From the NCBI GenBank assembly GCA_036785375.1, contig JAWMAR010000007.1, positions 11,222,001 through 11,286,000 on the forward strand: a stretch of 64,000 nucleotides of DNA, written 5' to 3'. Shown here piece by piece: positions 7,866 through 47,194 of the stretch; the stretch's first letter is position 1, and each line of letters begins with the position of its first letter. This DNA comes from Leucoraja ocellata (taxonomy: Eukaryota). The translations under genes and the position numbers were made by a program. The notes below the pieces were generated by a model, which had not been told where the DNA came from, ran no database searches, and worked only from the letters and a program-made list of their open reading frames with translations.

Positions 7866-9624
7866 AAAGTGGATAACCTCACATTTATCCACATTAAACT
7901 TCATTTGCCATGCATCTGCCCACTCCCACAACCTGTCCAAGTCACCCTGCATTCTCATGGCATCCTCCTCACAGTTCACACTGCCACCCAGCTTTGTGCC
8001 ATCTGCAAATTTGCTAATGTTACTTTGAATCCCTTCATCCAAATCATTGATGTATATTGTAAATAGATGCAGTCCCAGTACCGAGCCTTGCGGTACCCCA
8101 CTAGTCACTGCCTGCCATTCTGAAAGGGACCCGTTAATCCCTACTCTTTGTTTCCTGTCTGCCAACCACTTCTCTACCCCCAATACCATGTGCCCTAATT
8201 TTGCCCACTAATCTCCTATGTGTGACCTTATCAAATGCTTTCTGAAATTCCAGGCAATTAAGGAAATCAATAGATATTGAATTAGTGCAGGAACATGATG
8301 AAGGGAAGGAATTATTATTACATTGAATAGTTCAGCAGCCACAAGAGGCTGAATGGCCTACTCATCCTAATTAAGACCTATCTTTCTTTTATCATCCCAG
8401 ACATCCATGACAAGCTGGAATGACTGATGAGAAAATTTACAAGACTATTGCCAGGACTCGAGGGCCTGAGCTATAGGGAGAAGTTGGGCTGCATAGGACT
8501 TTATTCCTTGGAGTACAGGAGGATGAGGGGGGATCTTTTGGAGGTGTATAAGATCGCGATGGAATAAACAGGTAAATGCACAGAGTCTTTTATCCTATAG
8601 GAGTATAGGAGAATCATGAACCAGGATAAATTTGACTTTTACTTTTGACTTTGGCTTTGGGAATATTTTTAGGGTGAGAGGAGAAAGATTTAATGGGAAT
8701 CTGAGGGACAACATTTCACACAGAGGGTGGTAGGTATATGGACCAAGCTGCCTGGGGTAGTGATTGATACAGGAACGATCACAACCTTTAAAAGGCATTT
8801 GACAGGTACATGGATGGGGAAAGTTGAGAGTGACATGGGCTAAATGCAGGCAGATGGGTCTAGCATCAATGGGGCATGTAGTTGGACTCATGAGCCTGTT
8901 TCCGTGCTGTATGAACCAATGTTGTTGCCAGGATCAGTAGAAAGACTGAATAGAGGTAAAAAGCCTGTAAAAAGAATGACTAATTGAAGTACTGTCACTC
9001 TGTGAGCCAGTAGTTATTTCACATCCCTATTTTCCCTTGAATTGAGTGGCTTGCTGAAGTATTTTCCCAAGTACAGATAGGAGTCACACTTCCTTTCACA
9101 ATTCCTTCAAACTACACCCCCACCCAGACCTGCTGAGTTCCTGCAACAGATTGTTTGGTGTTCTGCGATCCACCCTTGCAGTGGGCCTCAACAGACGGAA
9201 GAACAGCTGATTTCCTTCCCCAAAACGCAAACGTGTGTAATCTCACGACAATATGATAGTTTCATGTTCTGAAGATGAGCAGGGGAAAGGTTTCCCCAAA
9301 TACCCGCGCTCCAACATTCACTTTTCAATTATCCATTCATTACTATGTTTCAGATGACTTTTGCTGAGCTTTGACTCCCTGTCTTACGATAGTGACTGCA
9401 CTTCAGAAGCAGTTCGCTGGCAATTAATTGATCTGGTTCGTCCTGGCACTGTAACAGATGATTTTTTGCCGAGGAACACAAATGCACAGAAGCCTCCGAA
9501 GTGTCACAGACGTCCTACAGTGGGGCACCCCCAGTCCCGGGTCTCAAGCGTTCCAATTTAACTCATGATCTGTACTTCAACGTTATCCGAAAATATCAGG
9601 GAGGTTTGTCATGAGCAGGAGGTT

Positions 9625-9686
9625 TTATTCTCCACTTGCATCCTTGGCCTGTTCTTTTGTATATACAACCGTTGCATAAATGCAGC
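9625..9686 (-). CDS. Siglec-15-like receptor, last coding exon (CIYATV motif, stop)
   Basis: Acceptor ttgtttatcttccag. Encodes GCIYATVVYTKEQAKDASGE*, with TAA at 9627-9625. Confidence 0.8.
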
Positions 9687-11019
9687 CTGGAAGATAAACA
9701 ATTTAATTTTTATGATTTTATGTTGTCATTGTAAGATTCTTCTATCTTGATTCAAACCATTGAGAACCATAGTTATACAACACGAAAACAGGCCCTTCGG
9801 CCCAACTTTCCAATGCCGACCATGATGCCCCATATACTCTAATCCCACATGCTTGTGTTTGGCCTATATCCCTCTTAACCTTTCCAAACCATGCACCTGT
9901 CTTTTAAATGTTGTCAGAGTATTTGCCTCAACTACCTCCTCTGGCAGCTCGTTCCATATACCATCACCCTCTGTGTGAAAAATTTGCCTATCAGGTTCCT
10001 ATTAAATCTTTCCCGTCGCATCTTAAACTCATCCTCTCGCATTTGATTGCCCTACTCTTGGAATAGATAGGTATGCAAACAACCAATCCATTCCCCTCGT
10101 GAGAGGAAAACGTCTAATCTCTCAAACTCAGAGCCTATCCAGAACTGGAACCCTCTCTGCAAATTCAGTCAGCCTTCCACCCCAGATCCAACATCCCCTC
10201 TCCATTATCATCTGATGGCCACTCTCCCCAGTCTTTCACTCAACTGCTGGTTAGACAGGTTAGATAAACTGATGATATGGTCATCCTGGTTGATTTGGGC
10301 TCCTTGTATTCTGGTCCTTCTTCAATTGTGCCTGGCTTTCCCTGGACCTGCCCTCTCAATATTAGAAAATTGCTTGAATTCAACCCAGTTTGAGCAAGGC
10401 CAGGCCCTCTCACCCATCAGAGAACCGGCTTGTCAGCGACTCTCTCCTCTATATTGCGGGTACTCTTAGTCTTCTTATTGCCAGAGGGAACTTGCCCCAT
10501 TTCGAAGCTCTTTGCTCCCACACTGACCCCTTCCCCCCATCATCCATCCAACCCCCTGAGACCAGGATCATCAGCTGTTTATAGAGTCAGAGTCATACAG
10601 TATGGAAACAGGCTCTTCGGCCCAACTTGCCCATGCCTTCCAAGATGCCCATCTACACTAAGCCCACTTGCCCACATTTGGCCCATATGTCTCTAAACCT
10701 TTCCTTTCCATGTACCTGACCAAATGTCTTTGAAATGTTGTCATAGTACCTTCCTCAACTACCCTCCTCTGGTAGCTCTGACCACCACCCTCAGTTTGAA
10801 AATGTTGCCCTTCTTTTTCCCATTATATCTTTTAGCTCTCACGTTAAACCCAAGTCATCTGGTTCTTGCGTTAAACCCATGTCCTCTGGTTGACAGCCAA
10901 CTACACAGAGCCAAGCTACTGTCTGAGGAATCTTGTCCACAGAATGTAAGGAATAGGGAGGGAAGTTGGCCATTCAGCCATTCAACATGATTTATGATGG
11001 ACATTGAAGCATTAGTCAA

Positions 11020-12730
11020 GCAAAAGGGGCATGTCAGATATAGGTAGCTGGGAATCAAGCAAACCTCTCAAGTATAAAGGGTGTAGGCTTACAATTTAGA
11101 GCGAAATAAAGAGGACAAAAAGAGGACATGAGATAGCTATGGCAGATAAGATAACGGAGAACTCAGAGAAATTCTCAAAGTATATTAAGAGCAAAAGGCT
11201 AAATAAAGAGAATAGGATCAACATGGTCATCCATGGGAGATGGGTGAGGTTTTAAATTAACATTTCTCATCTGTATTTATCGTGGAGAAGGTCATGGAAG
11301 TTAAGGAATTAAGAGTATTGAATTGCAATACATTGGAACATATCTACATTACAAAAGAGGTGCTGGCAGACTTAAGACATATTAGGGTAAATAAATGTCC
11401 AAGGCCTGATGAGATGTATCCTAGGATATTACGGGAAGCTAGGGACGAAATTTCAAGTGGTCTGGCAGAGGCATTTGCATCATCTTTAACATAAGTGTGG
11501 TGCTGGAAGATTGGAGGGTGGTAAATGTTGTGCCCCTATTTAAGAAGGGCTGCAAGTACAAGAGGGAACTACAGACCAGTGAGCCTGTAGTGGTGAGGGA
11601 ATTACTGGAGGGGATTTTGATGTTAATTCTGGCCAAATTGGAGATGTCAGGACACTAAAATTGTGTAAAGGCTTCTGGTCTGCTAGGCCATTTGGTCAAT
11701 TTAAATGTGCCTTCTGCAGAAATGGGACAAGCTGCAGAATGGTGCCAGCTTGTCTGGAGCCTAGATAAGAGTTGTAGGAAAAGAATGGGACTTCTGCAAA
11801 TTCTTACAATTAGGTGTAAATTGCATGAAACGGATTGGGTGAATGCAAACCAGATATATACATTGTTAATATTGTTCCAACGCTTTACTTTGCTAGATGT
11901 TGATTGGATTAAGTGTTGAGCCTTGTCTAGGTTTCTTGAATAACAAGGCACATGTTGCTATGTTTGCTTCCTTCCAGAAGCTCCGTTTGAATACAATGTA
12001 TTAGTTACTGTATTATTGGGTTAGGGAAATGTCTATCATGAACTGTGTTAATCGATATCTGTTATTGGACTGTAAAGAGACCACCCCCATATGATTCGTC
12101 CCTCAAGGTTCGGGCACCTATAAAAGGCCACTCCCACGAGGTCCTGAGTCGATCTTCTGGGAGAACGTTTGGGACTGTGCGACTGTTTGGAGTCTCTGCT
12201 TGCACAAGGCTAGGAGAGCTTGGCCAATCAGATACAAGGATCGAACCCACAGTGGTTAGGTATAGTAGTGAGGAACCGTTATTGTGTATTTCCAAAATAA
12301 AATTTAGATGCGTAAGGGCTTGACTCAGTATCTTATTGACTGAAACTAGACTGGGGGGAAGCGTAGAATGAGCTTTACAAGGATGTACAAGGATGTACCC
12401 GGATTTGGAACGGTAACGACTGATGAGGGATAGTTAGCATGGCTTTGTGTGTGGAATTTGTGTGTGACTCATGAATTTGACTGAGCTTTTGATGAGGCGA
12501 TGAGTCTATTGACGAGGGCAGAGCTGGTACACATTGCCTGCATGGACGTTAACAAGGCCTTTGCCAAGTTCTCACATGGCTTACTAGTCTGGAAGATTAA
12601 ATCACATGAGGTCTAGGGTGAATGAGCCAATTGGATATGAATTTGGCTTGGTGGAAGGTGGTGGTGATGGGTTGCTTTTCAGACTGGAGGCCTGTGACTA
12701 GTGGTGTATCACAGGGATCGGTGCTGGGCT
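11020..12730 (+). mobile_element. Decayed CR1 fragment, interrupted at about 11621-12379
   Basis: KCPRPDEMYPRILRE, YRPVSL and SGVSQGSVLG remnants are collinear on both sides of the interruption. Confidence 0.75.
11621..12379 (+). mobile_element. Candidate solo LTR inserted in CR1
   Basis: Unrelated insert starting TG and ending CA, with CTATAAAAG at about 12118 and AATAAA at about 12296. No clean TSD. Confidence 0.4.
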
Positions 12731-12822
12731 CACTCAGTATGAAATGGGTTTGATGTGTTCCCAAGGGGTGTCCTCGCAGATGTGTGTATTTTGCCGCTCA
12801 CGGTGTGTTCGGTGGTCCTTAC

Positions 12823-12900
12823 CAGTCTCCTCCTCTTTGCAGGGAGGTCTTTGAATGTGCACATTGCTGTACACAGTGTCATTCTGAGACTCCTGGGGAT
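12823..12900 (-). CDS. Siglec-15-like receptor, exon 10 (cytoplasmic ITSM-like TVYSNV)
   Basis: Acceptor ctgtgttcttttcag, donor G|GTAAGG, 78 nt. Encodes DPQESQNDTVYSNVHIQRPPCKEEET. Confidence 0.82.
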
Positions 12901-13619
12901 CTGAAAAGAACACAGATTGTTATTGCATTCCAGCATCTCTCCCCCACTGTATTCTATCACTCAAACCACCCACTCCCCTTTAAACGACATTGGGACAGGT
13001 ACTTGGTTTGGAAAGGTGTATAGGGATATGGGCCAAATGCAGGCAATTGGGACTAGTGTGGATGGGCATTTTGGTTGGCTTGAGCAAGTTGGACCAAAGA
13101 GCCTGCCTCTGTGCTCTATGACTCTATGAGTCCCCACCTTTGATAATCACTGTCTCTTGCCTGTTCCGATTGCCCCTCCTATAGTGGTCCATCTTTTGCC
13201 AAGACTGTTCTTCACCCCTCATTATGATACATTGCATGCCCCAAGAGAACCATCGCTGCTTCTGTACAGAACCGTACTGCAGAATAGACAGCATTGTACT
13301 TCCAGGTCTAACGCTTGGCTGCCCGTTGGTGGGAAGCGGAAAATAAACAACACCAGGATCTCCAGTAACTCTATGTCCTGGGTCTTTGTTACTACTTCCA
13401 CCGTGTCTGGCCTTTGCTGCACCTGCCCTGAATGTTGGATATGGAGAGCTCTGGATCACAGGCTCGCTGGGAAGCCCAGTGTATATTGTCAGTGCCAGTG
13501 GATGGTTCTAGTCAGTACATCAAGGGTTTGCATCCCAGCCTGTTGGGGGCACTATTTTACATGGGCCGTCCACACCACCACGTTGTTTCACAGCTCACCG
13601 TGTGCTTACTGTTCCTTAC

Positions 13620-13679
13620 CTATCTCCACTCCTACTCGAGAACGGCTTTGAATGTGAACAATGCTGTAAATGAGGGCAT
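13620..13679 (-). CDS. Siglec-15-like receptor, exon 9 (cytoplasmic ITIM LIYSIV; cryptic acceptor next to an L2 tail)
   Basis: Acceptor attattactctccag, donor G|GTAAGG, 60 nt. Encodes DALIYSIVHIQSRSRVGVEI and is homologous to exon 10. Confidence 0.65.
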
Positions 13680-13688
13680 CTGGAGAGT

Positions 13689-14243
13689 AATAATAATAAT
13701 AATAACTTTATTTATAAAGCACTTTAAACAACTGCAGTTGCCACAAAGTGCTGTACATGAGAACTCATGGACAAGAAGTTATTACTAACATTAAAAACCG
13801 TAAAACAAAGGACTATAAAACAGTAGAAATCAAAAGACATTAAAAGCACTAAAAACAGGAGCAATGTCTCAGCCAGTGTCGAACGCCAGAGAATAAAAAT
13901 GAGTTTTTAGGGTGGATTTGAAGATGGACAGTGAGGGGGCCTGTCTGATGTGCAACGGCAAGGTGTTCCAGAGTGCCGGAGCAGCAACAGAAAAGGCTCT
14001 ATCTCCTCTGAGCCTCCGCATAGACCTTGGTACCTCAAGGAGCAGCTGATCAGCTGACCTGAGGCACCGGGCAGGAGCGTGTGGGTGGAGCAGCTAAGAG
14101 AGGTAAGGCGGGGCGAGCCCATTCAATGATTTAAAAACAAATAAAATAATTTTTAAATGAACTCAAAAGTACACCGGGAGCCAATGAAGGGAGGCCAAAA
14201 TTGGCGTAATGTGCTCCCTCTTTCGAGTTCCGGTTAAGAGGCG
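13689..14243 (-). mobile_element. L2 LINE 3' fragment
   Basis: RLLTGTRKREHITPILASLHWLPV motif, an L2-type 3' end and an (ATT)n tail. Confidence 0.88.
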
Positions 14244-14699
14244 ATCTGGAAAGGACACAAAGTTACTGCACAACTTCATCGCCTTGCTATCTTAACCTCA
14301 CAATCCCAGCCCCTGAACTACTATCTCCCTTTTTGATGACCCTCGGACTGTCCTTGATCGGACTTTGTTGGCTTTACTTTCACTAAATGTTATTCCCTTA
14401 TCATGTATCGATACACTGTAAATGGCTCGATTGTAATCATGTATTGTCTATCTGCTGACTGGATGGCACACAACAAAAAGCTTTTCACTGTACCTCGGTA
14501 CACGTGACACCAAACTAAACTGTAACTGTCCAACACTCTCCCCCCCCATCCCTAGCCCTGACAGCCCAATCTCTCCCCTTTCCTATCACCCTACTCCCTT
14601 TTCTGCAGTTTTACTTCCCTGCAGGTGGAAAATAGAATATTGACAAGGCCCTGGAGGCAGGAATCTTGGGACTGGCATTGTTTTGCTGCTCACCATGTG

Positions 14700-15890
14700 T
14701 TCACTGTTCCCTACACATGAAGGGGTTATTTGATTGGCAGGTGGGTTGAACAGTGGCCAGAGGTGAAAGACTGAAGGTGTGAGATAAGGATACATGTGAA
14801 TTGTGAAGCCAGAGGAATGAATGTGGGTGGAAGGGGGGGGGGAGCATTAAATGGGTGCTCATCCTGATGGGGCACAGAGAAGAGAGAGGTGGGGTGGGAA
14901 GGGGATGGGGAGAAGTGTAGTTGGGTTTTGCTGGTTAGTTACCTAACATTGGAAAATTCAATGTTCACACCGTTAGGTTGTAAACAAACCAAGCGGAATA
15001 TAACCTGGAGTATTGCGTACAGTTTTGGTCTCCTAATCTGAGGAAAGACATTCTTGCCATAGAGGGAGTACAGAGAAGGTTCACCAGACTGATTCCTGGG
15101 ATGTCAGGACTTTCATATGAAGAAAGACTGGATAGACTTGGTTTATACTCTCTAGAATTTAGGAGATTGAGAGGGGATCTTATAGAAACTTACAAAATTC
15201 TTAAGGGGTTGGACAGGCTAGATGCAGGAAGATTGTTCCCGATGTTGGGGAAGTCCAGAACAAGGGGTCATAGTTTAAGGATAAGGGGGAAATCTTTTAG
15301 GACCGAGATGAGGAAAACTTTTTTCACACAGAGTGGTGAATCTCTGGAACTCTCTGCCACAGAAAGTAGTTGAGGCCAGTTCATTGGCTATATTTAAGAG
15401 GGAGTTAGATGTGGCCCTTGTGGCTAAAGGGATCAGGGGGTATGGAGAGAAGGCAGGTACAGGATACTGAGTTGGATGATCAGCCATGATCATATTGAAT
15501 GGCAGTGCAGGCTCGAAGGGCGAATGGCCTACCCCTGCACCTATTTTCTATGTTTCTATAAGGTGCTGTTTGTGTATGGTATTACTTTGACAATGGAGGA
15601 GGCCCAGGACAGTGAGGTTAGGATGGGAATGGGAAGGGGAGTTAAAATGTATAGCAACAGAAAGATCCAACAGGTCTTGTTACACAGAGTTTGTGTTCAG
15701 TGGAACGGTCGCCGAAGCTATATTTGGTCTCGCCAATGGAAAGGAGGCCACATCAGGTGCAGTAGATGAAGTTGGAGGAGGTGCAGGTTAACCTCTGTCT
15801 CACCTGGAAGGACTGCTGGGGGTTCCTGGATGGATGTAAGGGAGGAGATGTAGGGACAAATTTGCATCTCCTGCAGTTGCAAGGGAAAGT
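14700..15890 (-). mobile_element. Penelope-like remnant interrupted by a + strand CR1 3' end (about 15001-15560)
   Basis: SFQVRQRLTCTSSNFIYC resembles the start of a GIY-YIG domain. The CR1 ORF at 15101 reads LSYEERLDRLGLYSLEFRRLRGDLI. Confidence 0.6.
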
Positions 15891-17334
15891 TTCACATATA
15901 TTTCTTAAAGAGGATGATGATTGGACTTTTTGGCCTTCCATCACAGTGAGGAATGTAGGGAATCTGCTGACGTGGATGCTTATGTTAACTTTTATATAAT
16001 TGTGTGTCTTGTATGGCTGTATGGTAATTCATAAAACACTGTATCTTAATTGGTACATGTGACAATAAAAGACCTTTGTAACCTTTGAATACAAGTTGAG
16101 AGCAAGAATCAACCACTCAGCTCTGCTTTTCAATGATATCATGACTGATATCCCACCTGCTAAACGCTCACCCCTGTGCTCTTCAAGAGCATGAAACGTC
16201 TGACGAAGGTGTGTCCAGCACGAATGTTAGTGCTTTCTCTTTTCACAGAGGTTGCCTGACCTGTTGTGGGTTTCCAGATATTTCTGTTTCCAGATATTCT
16301 CCATCTATCTCTGGCCCAAAATATTAAAAACTCAATCTTTTGAGGAAGAGAGTTCCAAAGACTGTTGATCTAAGAAACGAAAATCAAGTCATCCTAAAAT
16401 GTGTGACTCCTACTTGTGAACAGTAACTCTTCAATCCAGGTTTGCTCACAAGAGCAAACATCTTCTCAAATCCATTCTGCAAAGATGCTTTTGGAGCTTA
16501 GTCAAGTTTTTTCTCACTTTAATGCCTCTAATTTTTACATCCATGATACTGCATGTTCCCCCAGTCCCACTCCAAACACGTCTGCTGCTGAAACCCATGT
16601 CCCTATCTTCAATCATTCCAGCCTTGTCACCTCTTACGTGAGTTTTAATCTGTACAAAACGCTCCATTGGCCTCCACTGGCTCCAGCTCGGGGGCATCTC
16701 AGTGTGAAGGTTCTCTTTTCCCATTTTCTGTAAGCTGTTCCACTTTGCTAATCTTGGGATCTCTACCTTCTCCAGCTTGCCTCAGAAACATCCCCTCTTT
16801 GTTTCTCAGATCAATAGGAGCTCCCTTCCTCAATGACAGTGGCAGCACAGTGGCGCAGCAGGTAAAATGTGCAAACTCCACACTGATATCACCCAAGTTT
16901 GGGATCGAACACGGGTCTCAAGCGCTGTGAGGCAGCAGCTCTGCCAGCAGCGCCACAGCACAGCACCAGAGATCTGGGTTCAATACAGACTGTATAGAGT
17001 CTGTGCTCGTCCCCATGAATGCTTGGCTTACCTCCGGATGTTCCAGTTTCCTCCACCACCTCATAGATATGCGGGTTAAATCGCCGCTAAGATCCAGGGA
17101 GATGATGAGAAAGTGGGTTGATATAGAATTAGTGTGAAATTATGACCAATGGTTGGCATGAACTCCACACTGATGTGGGCAGAACAGCCTATTTCCATGC
17201 TGTATCCATAAAATTACAACTTTTAACCACTCTGCCGCAGGAGCTGGATCGTGAAAGCTGGCCTTTACTTCCTGCATCTCTTCCTCCTGGTTACCTCTGT
17301 GCAAATTCCAAATGATAACCATCACTGCACTCAC

Positions 17335-17451
17335 CAACATTCCTGTCCAATTCTCCCGGAGTTGGGACTGCCTGGGTGGCTGCCCTGTTTCTTGTCTCTG
17401 TGTTTAAATCAACAACACTGTAAATAGGATCCCCTTCAGGCTCCTGTGAAC
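17335..17451 (-). CDS. Siglec-15-like receptor, exon 8 (cytoplasmic, PIYSVV motif)
   Basis: Acceptor ttttttgtgtctttggcag, donor G|GTGAGT, 117 nt. Encodes SQEPEGDPIYSVVDLNTETRNRAATQAVPTPGELDRNV. Confidence 0.82.
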
Positions 17452-18746
17452 CTGCCAAAGACACAAAAAAGCAATGCGTATTTCAATGGAGAAATTAGAG
17501 CTCCCAAACTGTCCACCCCATCCCCTCCCACAGGGTCAAAACTGTAGATAAAACAGAAGGGAATCCTGGAGTAATCGCAAAATGCAGAACTTTCCAACCC
17601 TATCCTCAGGCGTGGTGGAGGGTTACATAGATGAGGTTATTTGTGCAAATCTATGAGATACATTGATCAGGTATTGTTACTTTGGGTATAATAGGATCAA
17701 TTCCAAATTACAATGACCTTTCAAAACCAAAGCTGGTGTATTAGATATAATATTGGTCTCTTTACCCCAAAAAGCAATGTACAGGCAATTCCGCTATACC
17801 ACGAATGCTGCATTCTTAAGGAACATCTTATTGTAAAAAATTACATTCTGAAAATAATTGTGCCAATGAGAAAAAGGAGGTAAGGGGCTAGTGATTATGA
17901 GGCTTGCAATAACAATGTTATTTCTCCCACTGGTTTTTTAAAAACAAAGATCTATTTTATGGCTCCAAGTTTAGTTTTGTACTGCAATCTACAAATACTG
18001 ATGGCTCAATGTTACTTTGTTTAATAGAGTATCACTGCACACATGTCAATTTAAATGATTGCTTGACCACCCATGATGATCTGTATTCATAAGAGACAGT
18101 GGTGACTGCTTACTGCAGGGAGGTTACATGAACATGTTTTTTTCTCCCCAGGTTGTTTTTTACAAGATAGCTTTTTTTCTGCTTTCCAAAGTAACTTTTA
18201 ACTGGATCTCAACTTCCTGATAGAGATTATTTTATAACCAATTCAAGCTGCATAATAGCATTACCTAATTTAGCAATCGTGTTGTAGCCAATTTGCGATT
18301 TCAAAACCTATGTTGAGCAGTACTACCTGTACTTACTTTGCAGATTGAGCAGCAAAGGTTCATGAGGCTGGTTATTGGGATGACAAAGAGATTAAATAGG
18401 TTGGACCTTCAATCTTTAGAGTTAAGGACAGGTGTCCAATACAAAATACTTCCAGTAGGTTCGACAGAGTAGATTAATTCCCATGACTGAGGAATCTGGA
18501 ATCTTAGTGCAAGCCCTGGGCCTTAAGGCAAGTATTTTAAGTATTAATATTCCACTTGAGCACACAACCTGATCTGCTCTGAGAGGGATTGTCTTTGCTG
18601 ATCTAATTAGAAGGCTGTGGGAGGTAGGGAAGGAGGGTAGGTGGTAGCGACAATTGAAAGGCCAGTTATTAAATGTGGGTTTGAGCTCTGCTTTTCCAAA
18701 GAATGTCCTCAATATGAAAGGAAGTTTTGGCAGATTCTCCTATTAC

Positions 18747-18818
18747 CTGGCTCTGGTCCTTGTGGTTTCCGACCATTGGCCGCGCTGGCATCAACACAAC
18801 ACACACGCTGCTGTGCAC
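18747..18818 (-). CDS. Siglec-15-like receptor, exon 7 (juxtamembrane, CAQQRVCCVDASAANGRKPQGPEP)
   Basis: Acceptor cctgtgtctttgacag, donor G|GTAATA, 72 nt, phase 1/1, open frame. The acceptor resembles that of the next exon. Confidence 0.7.
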
Positions 18819-19344
18819 CTGTCAAAGACACAGGAAATTATTCTGTGAGAATTCTCTCCAGATACCTCTCCCACTCTCCTCCTTTAACACACTTCTCTAC
18901 TCTCAGCTCATGGGTCTCTGAGCCCATCATGCTCCCATCTGGGCCTACTAATTCCCTGCTCAAGTTCTTTTTTTTCATAATCTTCCTTAAAGGCCCAGTC
19001 CAATTTCTGTTCCTTAAACTTTGCATATGCATCATTTTCCTTTGAGACTAAATTTACAACCTCTCATCATTAAATCACTCTCACTTCCTGATGCAAACTT
19101 TCCCAATAGCAGCTGGTCCATAACTACTTTACCCAGTAAAAAACAAAGTGCTGGAGAAATTCATAGGGCCACGCAGGCTCTGTGGTGGAGAGAAATGGAT
19201 AGATAATGTTTTGGGTCGCGATCCTTCATCAGATTGATGCAGTAGAGGGGAGAAAGCTGGCAAGGAGAGTTGAAGGGGAACGGGTGTGGCAAAAACTGAC
19301 AAATGTTGGTAGATTCAGAAAAGGGTTGAGTGGCAGATGGATGG

Positions 19345-19923: not shown

Positions 19924-20531
19924 TGTGTCCCAGTGGGCCTCCCTGTGTCCCAGTGGGCCTCCCTGTGTCCCAGTGGGCCTCCCTGTGTCCCAGTGGGCCT
20001 CCCTCTGTCCCAGTGGGCCTCCCTGTGTCTCAGTGGGCCTCCTTGTGTCCCAGTGGGCCTCCCTGTGTCCCAGTGGGCCTCCCTGTGTCCCAGTGGGCCT
20101 CCTTGTGTCCCAGTGGGCCTCCCTGTGTCCCAGCGGGCCTCCCTGTGCCCCAGTGGGCCTCCCTGTGTCCCAGTGGGCCTCCTTGTGTCCCAGTGGGCCT
20201 CCTTGTGTCCCAGTGGGCCTCCCTGTGTCCCAGTGGGCCTCCTTGTGTCCCAGTGGGCCTCCCTGTGTCCCAGTGGGCCTCCCTGTGTCCCAGTGGGCCT
20301 CCCTGTGTCCCAGTGGCCTCCCTGTGTCCCAGTGGGCCTCCCTGTGTCCCAGTGGGCCTCCTTGTGTCCCAGTGGGCCTCCCTGTGTCCCAGTGGCCTTC
20401 CTGTATCCCAGTGGGCCTCCCTGTGTCCCAGTGGCCTTCCTGTATCCCAGTGGGCCTCCCTGTGTCCCAGTGGGCCTCCTTGTGTCCCAGTGGGCCTCCC
20501 TGTGTCCCAGTGGGCCTCCTTGTGTCCCAGT
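19924..20531. repeat. Minisatellite, 20-bp unit ccctgtgtcccagtgggcct, about 30 copies
   Basis: Directly visible tandem array with C/T variants and a few 19-bp units. Confidence 0.97.
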
Positions 20532-21185
20532 GTTGAACACTATTCAGTACCAATCCTACCTTACCCCGGGATGTTCTGTTGTATTAATCATGCCACATGC
20601 TTGCTCAGTAGACTAACAAAAAGTTTGGCATTTCTCCAACACACTAGCCAATTTCTACAAATGCACCATTGAAAGCAAGACAAAGTGCTGGAGTAATTTA
20701 GCAAGTCAGGCAGCATCCCTGGAGAACGTGGATAGGTGACGTATAGGGTCGGGACCCTTCTTCAGACTGATCGGGATACTGTCAGGATGCTTCACAGCTT
20801 GGAAACAGCTCCCCAAGACTAAGACATTTCAGAGAGTTGTGAATGTAGTTGAGTATATCACACAGACCACACTTCCCACTATTGACTTCATCTGCACTTC
20901 ACGCTGCCTTAGGAAAGCAGTGAACATAATCAAGGATATTTTTCACCTCGGTCATCCCCTCTTCTCCCCTCTCCCGTTGGGCAGAAGATACATTAGCTTA
21001 AAGACGCAATCCACCAGATTCAGGAACAGCTTCTTCCCCCACTTTTGCCAGACTACTGAACGGCCCTCCCACAAACTAAGGTGTAGTCCCGATCTTCCAA
21101 CTTACTTCAGTGCGACCCATGCATTTTTTCTCTTTTTATCTGAACTTTTTCTGGAGCTGTAACATTGTAATGAAGGAACTATGGA

Positions 21186-23020: not shown

Positions 23021-23389
23021 ATTTTTTCAAAGATATGAGAGCAAATACCATCAGGCCAATAGCCAATATGGATAATCCAATGTAGACGCCTGGGTGCAAC
23101 ACTCCCCCAACCTCGAATAGGCGGATCTCACGCGTGTCCATCTGGTGTTCATTCTCAGCCACACACGTGTATTTCCCTGGCAGCCTGAGGTGAAGCAGCT
23201 CTCCCACAGTCAGTAGTTTCTCTGGATCATGTGTGACTGTCATCTCACTAATGTTCACGGGCAGAGCACTGTTCCCTGGGCCGATCCATGTGATGTTTGC
23301 AGGGGGCTTCCCTTCAGCCCTGCACACGAGGGTGTGTTCTCCAGTTACATTGTCACTCACAACGAACAGCTCCAGGATGGTGGCTGGGA
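23021..23389 (-). CDS. Siglec-15-like receptor, exon 6 (C2-set domain plus transmembrane helix)
   Basis: LVCRAEGKPPANITWIGP...GKYTCVAEN resembles the Siglec-15 C2 domain. It is followed by the TM segment GVYIGLSILAIGLMVFALISL and KK. Acceptor ccttccttctccaag, donor T|GTGAGT, 369 nt. Confidence 0.9.
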
Positions 23390-24038: not shown

Positions 24039-24401
24039 CCACAACCTCCAGTTTAGTCTCATCCTGAGTCACCGTCTCCTGTGTGGAATTCCTGACCCAA
24101 ACGTAACAGAAATAGTCTCTGCTGTCGTCCAGTCTGAGTTCCTTCACTCTGATAGAGGCGTCTCCCTGGTCTAGTTTTCCCACCAGCTTATATCGACCTC
24201 CTCCCTTTACAGTGACAGTGGAGGGAGGGTTCACAGAGTGGGGGTGGGTGTGATTAAAGACTGTGGACTCTTCCCGTAGATTCCCCTTCATCCAGCGGAC
24301 AGTGATGGGGCTGGGATTCTTGTTCAAGGGGCTGAAGGAGCAGGGCAGTGTGGCTGAATCTCTTCTGTTCCCAATCACCATCGATGTGTTCTTCTTTCCA
24401 T
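24039..24401 (-). CDS. Siglec-15-like receptor, exon 5 (V4)
   Basis: ATLPC, ITVRW, GDASIRV, DSRDYFCYV. Acceptor cttttctctatacaag, donor G|GTAAGG, 363 nt. Confidence 0.88.
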
Positions 24402-26692: not shown

Positions 26693-27055
26693 CCACAACC
26701 TGCAGTTTCATCTCATCCTGAGTCACAGTCGTCAACGTTGAATTCCTGACATAAACGTGACAGGAGTAATCACTGGCGTCATCCAGTTTGAGTCCCTTCA
26801 CTCTGATGGAGGCGTCTCCCTGCTCCAGATTTCCCACCATCTGATATCGATTTTCTATATTGACATTTTCAGGAATGCGATTTGCTGCTGGGCGGGGAGA
26901 AGTGTCACGAAAGACAACAGACCATTTTGGTGGATTCCCCTTCATCCAGCTGATGGTGATGGAGCTGGGATTCCTGTTCGAGGGACTGAAGGAGCAGGGC
27001 AGTGTGGCAGTCGCACCCTTCCTCCCAATCACCATGGATGCTCTGTCATTATCAC
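26693..27055 (-). CDS. Siglec-15-like receptor, exon 4 (V3)
   Basis: ATLPC, ITISW, GDASIRV, DASDYSCHV. Acceptor tcttctctctgcaag, donor G|GTAAGG, 363 nt. Confidence 0.88.
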
Positions 27056-29949: not shown

Positions 29950-30318
29950 CCAAAACCTGTAGTCCCACTTCATCCTGAGTCACCTGAATTTTTTTCTTCA
30001 GAGGGGAATTCCAGGTCCAAACATGACAGAAATAGTTGTTGGTGTCATTCAATGTGAGTCCCCTCACTCTGATGGAGGCGTCTCCATTGTCTACGTTTCC
30101 CACCAGCTCATATCGACCTCCTGTATTTACATTGTCAGTGCCTGGACCACTTGTGGCGTAGGAGCGGGTATGATTAAAGACAACGGACTCTTCCCATGGA
30201 GTCCCCTTCATCCAGAGGATAGTGATCACCCTGCTATTTGCTCTCGAGTGTTTGAAGTTGCAGTTCAGTGTGGCACCACCTCCTCTCTTCCCGATCACCA
30301 TAGATGCGCTGACATCAC
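29950..30318 (-). CDS. Siglec-15-like receptor, exon 3 (V2, V-set domain without the essential Arg)
   Basis: Open frame with ATLNC, ITILW, GDASIRV, DTNNYFCHV. Acceptor ctttctctatccgag, donor G|GTAAGG, 369 nt. Confidence 0.85.
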
Positions 30319-39307: not shown

Positions 39308-39691
39308 CTGGTATTTTGATAGGCCCATGTGCGCATTCATACATTGCCTTTGTTTGCTCTGTGAGCTCAACACGACAGTAGAGGGTCTTGATTGTATCCG
39401 TCGTTCTCAGCTGATTAATGATTATGGAAGCATCGTTCTTCCGAGGGTCCCCCATTCGTCGGTAGTGAGCTCCTACATTATACACAATATCATTTTTACA
39501 CGTGCCGCTTGATAGATAATTTTTGTATTCGAAAAGGGTCTTCTTGGGCTTCTCCTCTTTCCAGATGATGTTGATGTTGCCTTTGTATTCATGGTGAGGG
39601 TGAGTGAACTTGCAGTACAGAACCACGAGCTTCCCCTCCCTCCCCATCACCTTGTCCGGTGTCTCTATGGACCAACCACTGGTATTGCAGC
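39308..39691 (-). CDS. Siglec-15-like receptor, exon 2 (V1, sialic-acid-binding-type V-set domain)
   Basis: Acceptor tgtgtcttcacag, donor G|GTGAGG, 384 nt, phase 1/1. Motifs WSIETP, LYCKFTHPHHEYKG, GDPRKNDASI, YCRVE and YECAHG match the Siglec-15 V domain pattern (CTFTHPH, GNPRRNDLSL, FCRVE, YESRHG). Confidence 0.9.
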
Positions 39692-46994: not shown

Positions 46995-47194
46995 NNNNNN
47001 NNNNNNNNNNNNNNNNNNNNNNNNNNNNNNNNNNNNNNNNNNNNNNNNNNNNNNNNNNNNNNNNNNNNNNNNNNNNNNNNNNNNNNNNNNNNNNNNNNNN
47101 NNNNNNNNNNNNNNNNNNNNNNNNNNNNNNNNNNNNNNNNNNNNNNNNNNNNNNNNNNNNNNNNNNNNNNNNNNNNNNNNNNNNNNNNNNNNNN
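46995..47194. other. Assembly gap (200 N)
   Basis: Run of n characters. Confidence 1.

Follow-up and report, generated by a model that had tools for sequence, protein, structure and literature searches.

A window of 64,000 nucleotides (nt) of Leucoraja ocellata DNA (G000:C7:11222001-11286000) carries on its minus strand a Siglec-15-like receptor gene in which a long interspersed nuclear element (LINE) interrupts t3, the tail exon encoding an ITIM (immunoreceptor tyrosine-based inhibitory motif). The LINE probably landed 1-3 nt inside a 78-nt ITIM exon, six bases of which were lost; splicing would then have moved to an AG within the exon, yielding mainly one receptor, shortened by six residues but with its ITIM retained. 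Established are the boundaries of the insertion, the host origin of both AGs, the reading frame, a 26-amino-acid (aa) exon in Rhinoraja, 20-aa models in Leucoraja and the sharing of the insertion by four gene copies. From the sequence, the case is best read as a fixed, tolerated acceptor shift with mainly one shortened isoform.

Positions without a contig prefix are those of the window, and the exons and the LINE lie on its minus strand. The original t3 acceptor (14246..14270, delimited by genome matches) reads ctttgtgtcctttccag/AT with its AG ending at 14246; it is orphaned, and its AG is intact in 4/4 gene copies. It is followed by ATC (14243..14245), the first bases of the ancestral exon. 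The TC of this triplet also opens the LINE match (5' microhomology), hence the entry point of the LINE is placed only to exon base 1-3. The LINE (13688..14244, from genome matches) is a 5'-truncated sense fragment of 557 nt comprising the C-terminus of open reading frame 2 (ORF2), the 3' untranslated region, AATAAA (13712-13707) and a (TTA)6 tail (13705-13688). The remnant of the ancestral exon, AC TCT CCA G (13680..13688), recognized by comparison with D-S-P-D of Rhinoraja, forms the core of the putative rescue acceptor, which reads actctccag/ATGCCC with its AG ending at 13680. The rescued t3 exon (13620..13679, 60 nt), assigned from sequence and protein comparison, encodes 20 aa which are the same in proteins P0001 and P0019. 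The t3 donor follows 13620, the upstream (t2) donor follows 17335 and the downstream (t4) acceptor precedes 12900.

To place the LINE boundary, the 3.4-Gb genome was queried with window positions 14060-14330, and 40 of 1575 candidates were scored. Four match throughout and 36 are dispersed copies, which start at query base 87 (14244) in 32 cases and at base 89 (14242) in four. No dispersed copy match begins before 14244, placing the 14246 acceptor outside the LINE consensus, as a previous sequence-only reading of the window had assumed. Neither this acceptor upstream of the LINE nor CTCTCCAG after the TTA tail was found in any of the 26 dispersed copies inspected; therefore, both AGs are host sequence. 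The window LINE shares 92-97% identity with these 26 copies, themselves selected for matching best. The element is a LINE according to its reverse transcriptase reading frame close to a 3' simple-repeat tail, the TTA tails and the dispersed copies. In a longer copy (L040), the corresponding frame codes for RVT_1 (E=4.7e-26). The element is presumably an L2, a label taken from its ORF2 C-terminal motif and the sequence-only reading, with the reverse transcriptase domain tested only in the longer copy.

The uninterrupted exon is found in Rhinoraja longicauda (Arhynchobatidae), three proteins of which (XP_078286854.1, XP_078252976.1 and XP_078286909.1) contain a t3 exon of 26 aa (78 nt) and read RNV-DPRDSPDPLIYSIV...GAEM-DP across it. 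The intact orthologous exon begins DPRDSPDPLIY, and its window counterpart would be ATC...ACTCTCCAGAT. In the window, AT C remains ahead of the LINE and AC TCT CCA GAT behind it; the six exon bases gone at the insertion are the rest of the Pro codon, the Arg codon and the G of the Asp codon. The sister exon t4 is also 78 nt long and has its Tyr at the same codon as t3. The sequence-only reading had placed the insertion a few nt inside an exon of about 78 nt and had set xSPDALIY beyond the LINE in register with ESQNDTVY of the paralogous exon. The three Rhinoraja exons back the former, the orthologous DPRDSPDPLIY agrees with the latter, and all of its coordinates were recovered in the sequence. 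It had further asked what orthologues without the element look like: the Rhinoraja proteins have the uninterrupted 26-aa exon and not the 60-nt form. Rhinoraja was the only outgroup with the exon (1 of 23 candidates in the third homologue search); relatives in Pristis and Hemitrygon have short tails without t3, and the Amblyraja models are without a tail. An empty site was not found among four flank matches and 11 exon matches in the L. ocellata genome, and the LINE follows the flank in all four flank matches. Eight LINE-free t3 copies were considered as ancestral alleles and rejected, being tandem duplicates without an acceptor.

The in-frame rescue expected from the exon-internal AG is present in two Leucoraja erinacea RefSeq models, which contain the 20-aa form of t3 starting from the AG at 13680 with LIYSIV kept. 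The spacing of 26 aa between the ITIM and the immunoreceptor tyrosine-based switch motif (ITSM) of t4 is unchanged by the trim; only the distance between the Tyr residues of t2 and t3 shrinks, from 39 to 33. The insertion is present in each of the four full gene copies of the genome (W, in the window, and A, B and D). The proposed course of events would begin with retrotransposition that involved a short target-site truncation as well as the 5' TC microhomology. With 626 nt now separating it from its donor, the old acceptor would fail exon definition, and the host CTCTCCAG, the U-rich tail of the LINE and the nearby TTTAT would together make a workable acceptor. The insertion would predate the duplications which gave the four copies and would have been tolerated, with LIYSIV and the ITIM-to-ITSM distance untouched; old-acceptor transcripts would be minor and mostly degraded.

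The old and the rescue acceptor each have 14/18 pyrimidines, and seven other acceptors read in register have 12-16 (two off-by-one acceptors were excluded). Inside the LINE, a branch-point-like TTTAT precedes the rescue AG by 36 nt. Invariance was analysed in copies W, A and B over 6474 columns, 217 of them variable; copy D is without the segment and was excluded. The longest invariant run, 211 columns at 13777-13567, covers the 3' end of the LINE, the rescue AG, the exon and the donor (P=0.006 for a run at that site under random placement of the variable columns), and seven other splice sites sit in invariant runs of 14-47. The three copies retaining t3 do not differ from one another in exon, donor or acceptor. 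The invariance around the rescue AG is a hint of constraint only.

A number of points weigh against this account. The Leucoraja entries are predicted models, compared here as protein, both end by read-through of a donor, and isoform X2 was not among the Leucoraja models listed. The ancestral 78-nt state is deduced from a single outgroup species, at the level of protein and not DNA. The same branch-point scan found no site for the working t4 acceptor and discriminates poorly. Under random placement, some run as long as 211 columns has P=0.14 for any site, 7.8% of the other columns lie in runs of at least 150, and the statistic was chosen only after the copies had been compared. Gene conversion could produce the same run, and the working exons t2 and t4 vary too (2/117 and 4/75). 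Copy D has deleted the rescue acceptor, so at least one copy can do without the exon. Acceptor use in this species (17335 joined to 13679) is predicted from genomic DNA. In the contigs of sequencing runs X1, X2, X6 and X7 over 9500-19000, positions 13680-13716 are masked, repeats dominate and the 5' boundary of t3 is unreadable; X1 has no cover at 13938-14254 and X6 and X7 have none at t1, and these gaps in cover were not taken as evidence.

The sequence-only reading had proposed that the insertion yields three signalling isoforms: rescue, skipping, and a truncated, LINE-fused receptor. The last of these might be stabilized by the AATAAA of the LINE, which would make it an alternative last exon. 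All three forms are possible from the sequence, the old AG being intact in every copy and the LINE ORF2 lying in frame with the receptor, with AATAAA at 13712. As that reading also stated, skipping keeps the frame, since every tail exon is of phase 1-1 and has a length that is a multiple of 3, and the old-acceptor frame gives DRLLTGTRKREHITPILASLHWLPVYF followed by TGA at 14165-14163. A regulated set of three isoforms is nevertheless quite unlikely. Old-acceptor use would give a 626-nt exon; in the window copy, its stop precedes the next junction by 543 nt. Transcripts with a stop far upstream of the last junction are likely targets of nonsense-mediated decay, and the old-acceptor transcript is likely to be such a target unless the AATAAA of the LINE is used; an alternative last exon may be formed there. 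The old-acceptor peptide differs in all four copies (W 27, A 125, B 7 and D 50 aa), and the LINE body varies more than the intron (26/533 versus 104/3560 columns; Fisher p=0.023), a pattern which argues for decay and not for a retained isoform. None of the five full-tail proteins retrieved shows the LINE-fused or the skipped form. Cryptic donors inside the LINE are weak GT sites only, and the one keeping the frame before the window-copy stop (after 14173, GGT/GTACTT) is a poor match. Among 13 exonic retroelement insertions in NF1, the accessible text of PMC3219598 gives skipping in six, an upstream cryptic donor in three, a downstream cryptic acceptor in one and the element in mRNA in only two, which speaks against a LINE-fused form, although two outcomes can occur in one patient. 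A related proposal appears rather unlikely. In it, the 3' end of the LINE was co-opted as the upstream half of the rescue acceptor (branch point and U-rich tract) and is under selection, and its AATAAA provides an alternative last exon reached from the old acceptor, so that one end of the element would switch the receptor between ITIM-bearing and ITIM-less forms within a skate-specific cluster of inhibitory Siglecs.

If the rescue acceptor were weak, the exon might mostly be skipped and the receptor would usually be without a canonical ITIM. Skipping is the commonest NF1 outcome (6/13; PMC3219598), copy D has lost the rescue acceptor, and copies A, B and D have multiplied t4, which could compensate; yet both Leucoraja models include the exon, and exon, donor and acceptor show no difference among the copies that keep them, hence we doubt this possibility strongly. 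It is very unlikely that use of the internal AG preceded the arrival of the LINE, the element landing without effect in 18 dead bases. The internal AG belongs to the host and is probably older than the insertion (S-P-D in Rhinoraja), and no intermediate species was seen among the relatives compared; however, the old acceptor is intact and as pyrimidine-rich as working acceptors. Where two AGs lie close together, the upstream one is normally chosen (the scanning rule), and at a distance of 18 nt it would be expected to win. Finally, the exon could always have been 60 nt long and the second acceptor have arisen as a 10-bp target-site duplication (CTTTCCAGAT / CTCTCCAGAT), with 9/10 bases matching on both sides of the LINE; taken alone, the DNA fits this model as well as a 78-nt exon with a small deletion. 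It is nonetheless highly improbable: the 60-nt model was rejected by the Rhinoraja 26-aa exons, which include D-S-P-D, the sister exon t4 has a length of 78 nt and the same codon for its Tyr, and L2 duplications peak at 3-5 bp in the accessible text of PMC4245944. The acceptor shift triggered by the insertion is thus retained as the preferred explanation.

The open gene model runs from 39691 to 9624 and comprises four V-set exons, one C2-type/membrane exon and five tail exons, each of phase 1-1; it starts at the N-terminal V-set exon, downstream of the signal-peptide exon. V-set exon 1 (39308..39691) is Siglec-15-like, as judged from Pfam V-set, its PDB match and its donor. Against solved structures it matches Siglec-15 best (PDB 7zoz, E=3e-14), then weakly CD33, and its YCRVE aligns with FCRVE of Siglec-15; we take the arginine in this motif to be the essential Siglec Arg. 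Exons 2 (29950..30318), 3 (26693..27055) and 4 (24039..24401) are Pfam V-set exons as well. They are followed by the exon for a C2/I-type Ig domain (Pfam) and the transmembrane segment (23021..23389). The membrane segment has no charged residue, and the exon shares 96% identity with a protein of Leucoraja erinacea. The receptor is best described as Siglec-15-like with an N-terminal V-set arginine, and sialic-acid binding is predicted at most. A Siglec-15 orthologue was ruled out by the four V-set exons (versus one V and one C2) and the uncharged membrane segment, and is also opposed by a separate locus matching P0011 at 95-97%. That locus, at G000:C7:3747211-3753963 and 7 Mb away on the same contig, is a single, true Siglec-15-like gene with a lysine in its membrane segment; this gene and the ITIM cluster may form an activating/inhibitory pair.

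In the tail, t1 (18747..18818, 72 nt) was assigned from matches to P0019/P0004. With ITIM defined as (S/I/V/L)xYxx(I/V/L) and ITSM as TxYxx(V/I) (as given in PMC12151841), LIYSIV of t3 is the sole canonical ITIM; PIYSVV of t2 (17335..17451, 117 nt) and CIYATV of the last coding exon t5 (9624..9686, followed by the stop; supported by a spliced contig in X1) fail the definition, and TVYSNV of t4 (12823..12900), the paralogue of t3, fits the ITSM. An inhibitory function of LIYSIV with recruitment of SHP-1/SHP-2 upon phosphorylation is predicted from the motif. A second donor 21 nt past the t4 donor (12802-12822) would add GKDHRTH; the equivalent GKAHGTH is present in one Rhinoraja model (P0004) and absent in two. 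The intron after the membrane exon contains a minisatellite with a 20-bp unit in about 30 copies (19924-20532). Upstream of the gene lies a 200-N assembly gap (46995-47194), and three more such gaps occur in the cluster region read.

The 456 kb read contain four genes with tails and two without, with one more ectodomain set just outside; the receptor cluster lies at G000:C7:11.01-11.38 Mb (L041-L080). The t4 (ITSM-type) exon is present once in the window and in 3, 4 and 3 copies in A, B and D, in which tandem units begin at the first base of t3 without an acceptor and include t4. All eight acceptor-less t3 duplicates (L002-L010) open precisely where the rescued exon does, at its first base; at the junction, the equivalent of window 12441-12438 is joined to 13679-13676 with a 4-nt ATGC microhomology. 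Six full-length t3 duplicates read HVQ, as does Rhinoraja P0026; the LINE-adjacent exon reads HIQ, as does t4. In copy D (G000:C7:11363034, L013), a deletion from the middle of the LINE to the intron after the first t4 took away the exon with the canonical ITIM together with the rescue acceptor. Two V exons are broken in copy B (G000:C7:11183990-11177600): V exon 2 is without its 5' end and contains a stop, and V exon 4 is without its 3' half; skipping both would keep the frame. The cluster gains and loses symmetrical tail exons readily, and a tolerated trim of six residues is therefore less surprising.

The locus offers a clean natural case in which the insertion of a LINE into a coding exon was withstood and not purged, with the ancestral and the derived exon seen in related skates. 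It suggests that a chance in-frame AG and the U-rich tail of an element can preserve an inhibitory motif, within a cluster of Siglec-15-like inhibitory receptors that is young and in which the ITIM/ITSM number of the tails varies via exon gain and loss. Since the splicing principle is known, its value is that of an example; it would be greater if the element tail proved to be under selection or the switch proved true. A search by title or the start of the abstract, in which coverage of subscription papers was thin, found no paper on the gene or the insertion.

Among known systems, the receptor resembles Siglec-15 and the ITIM Siglecs (PMC6288428, as far as accessible) in its N-terminal V-set, which is closest to Siglec-15 with the arginine aligned, and the PD-1 tail (PMC12151841, as far as accessible) in the order ITIM then ITSM, at 26 residues here versus 25 in PD-1. 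In contrast to both, it has four V-set domains and an uncharged membrane segment, and each of its four Tyr motifs lies on a symmetrical exon of its own. The insertion shares 5' truncation, 5' microhomology and short target-site truncation with the ZfL2 insertions of zebrafish as described in the available parts of PMC4245944 and PMC2666801, although the L2 assignment here depends on the ORF2 C-terminal motif. The lineage-specific splice-site shifts of Kim and Hahn 2012 (PMC3538075) likewise gave a shorter derived exon with the downstream frame unchanged; however, the cases in its accessible text arose from new GT/AG dinucleotides with repeat-derived ones excluded, whereas here a host-exon AG would be used and the shift would have been triggered by an insertion. 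The closest likeness is the NF1 'type 4' class (Wimmer et al. 2011, PMC3219598, as far as accessible), in which a host cryptic 3' splice site that lies downstream of an exonic retroelement is used. Both an insertion inside the ancestral exon and a cryptic AG of host sequence downstream were found here, and use of the cryptic site in mRNA may be reflected in two predicted Leucoraja proteins. In NF1 the allele arose de novo, causes disease and involves an Alu and a loss of 229 nt; the skate exon loses 18 nt in frame, its allele is found in four gene copies and likely in a second species, and the 3' tail of a LINE abuts the new acceptor. The mechanism belongs to a class already known; at this locus the change is fixed and preserves the frame.
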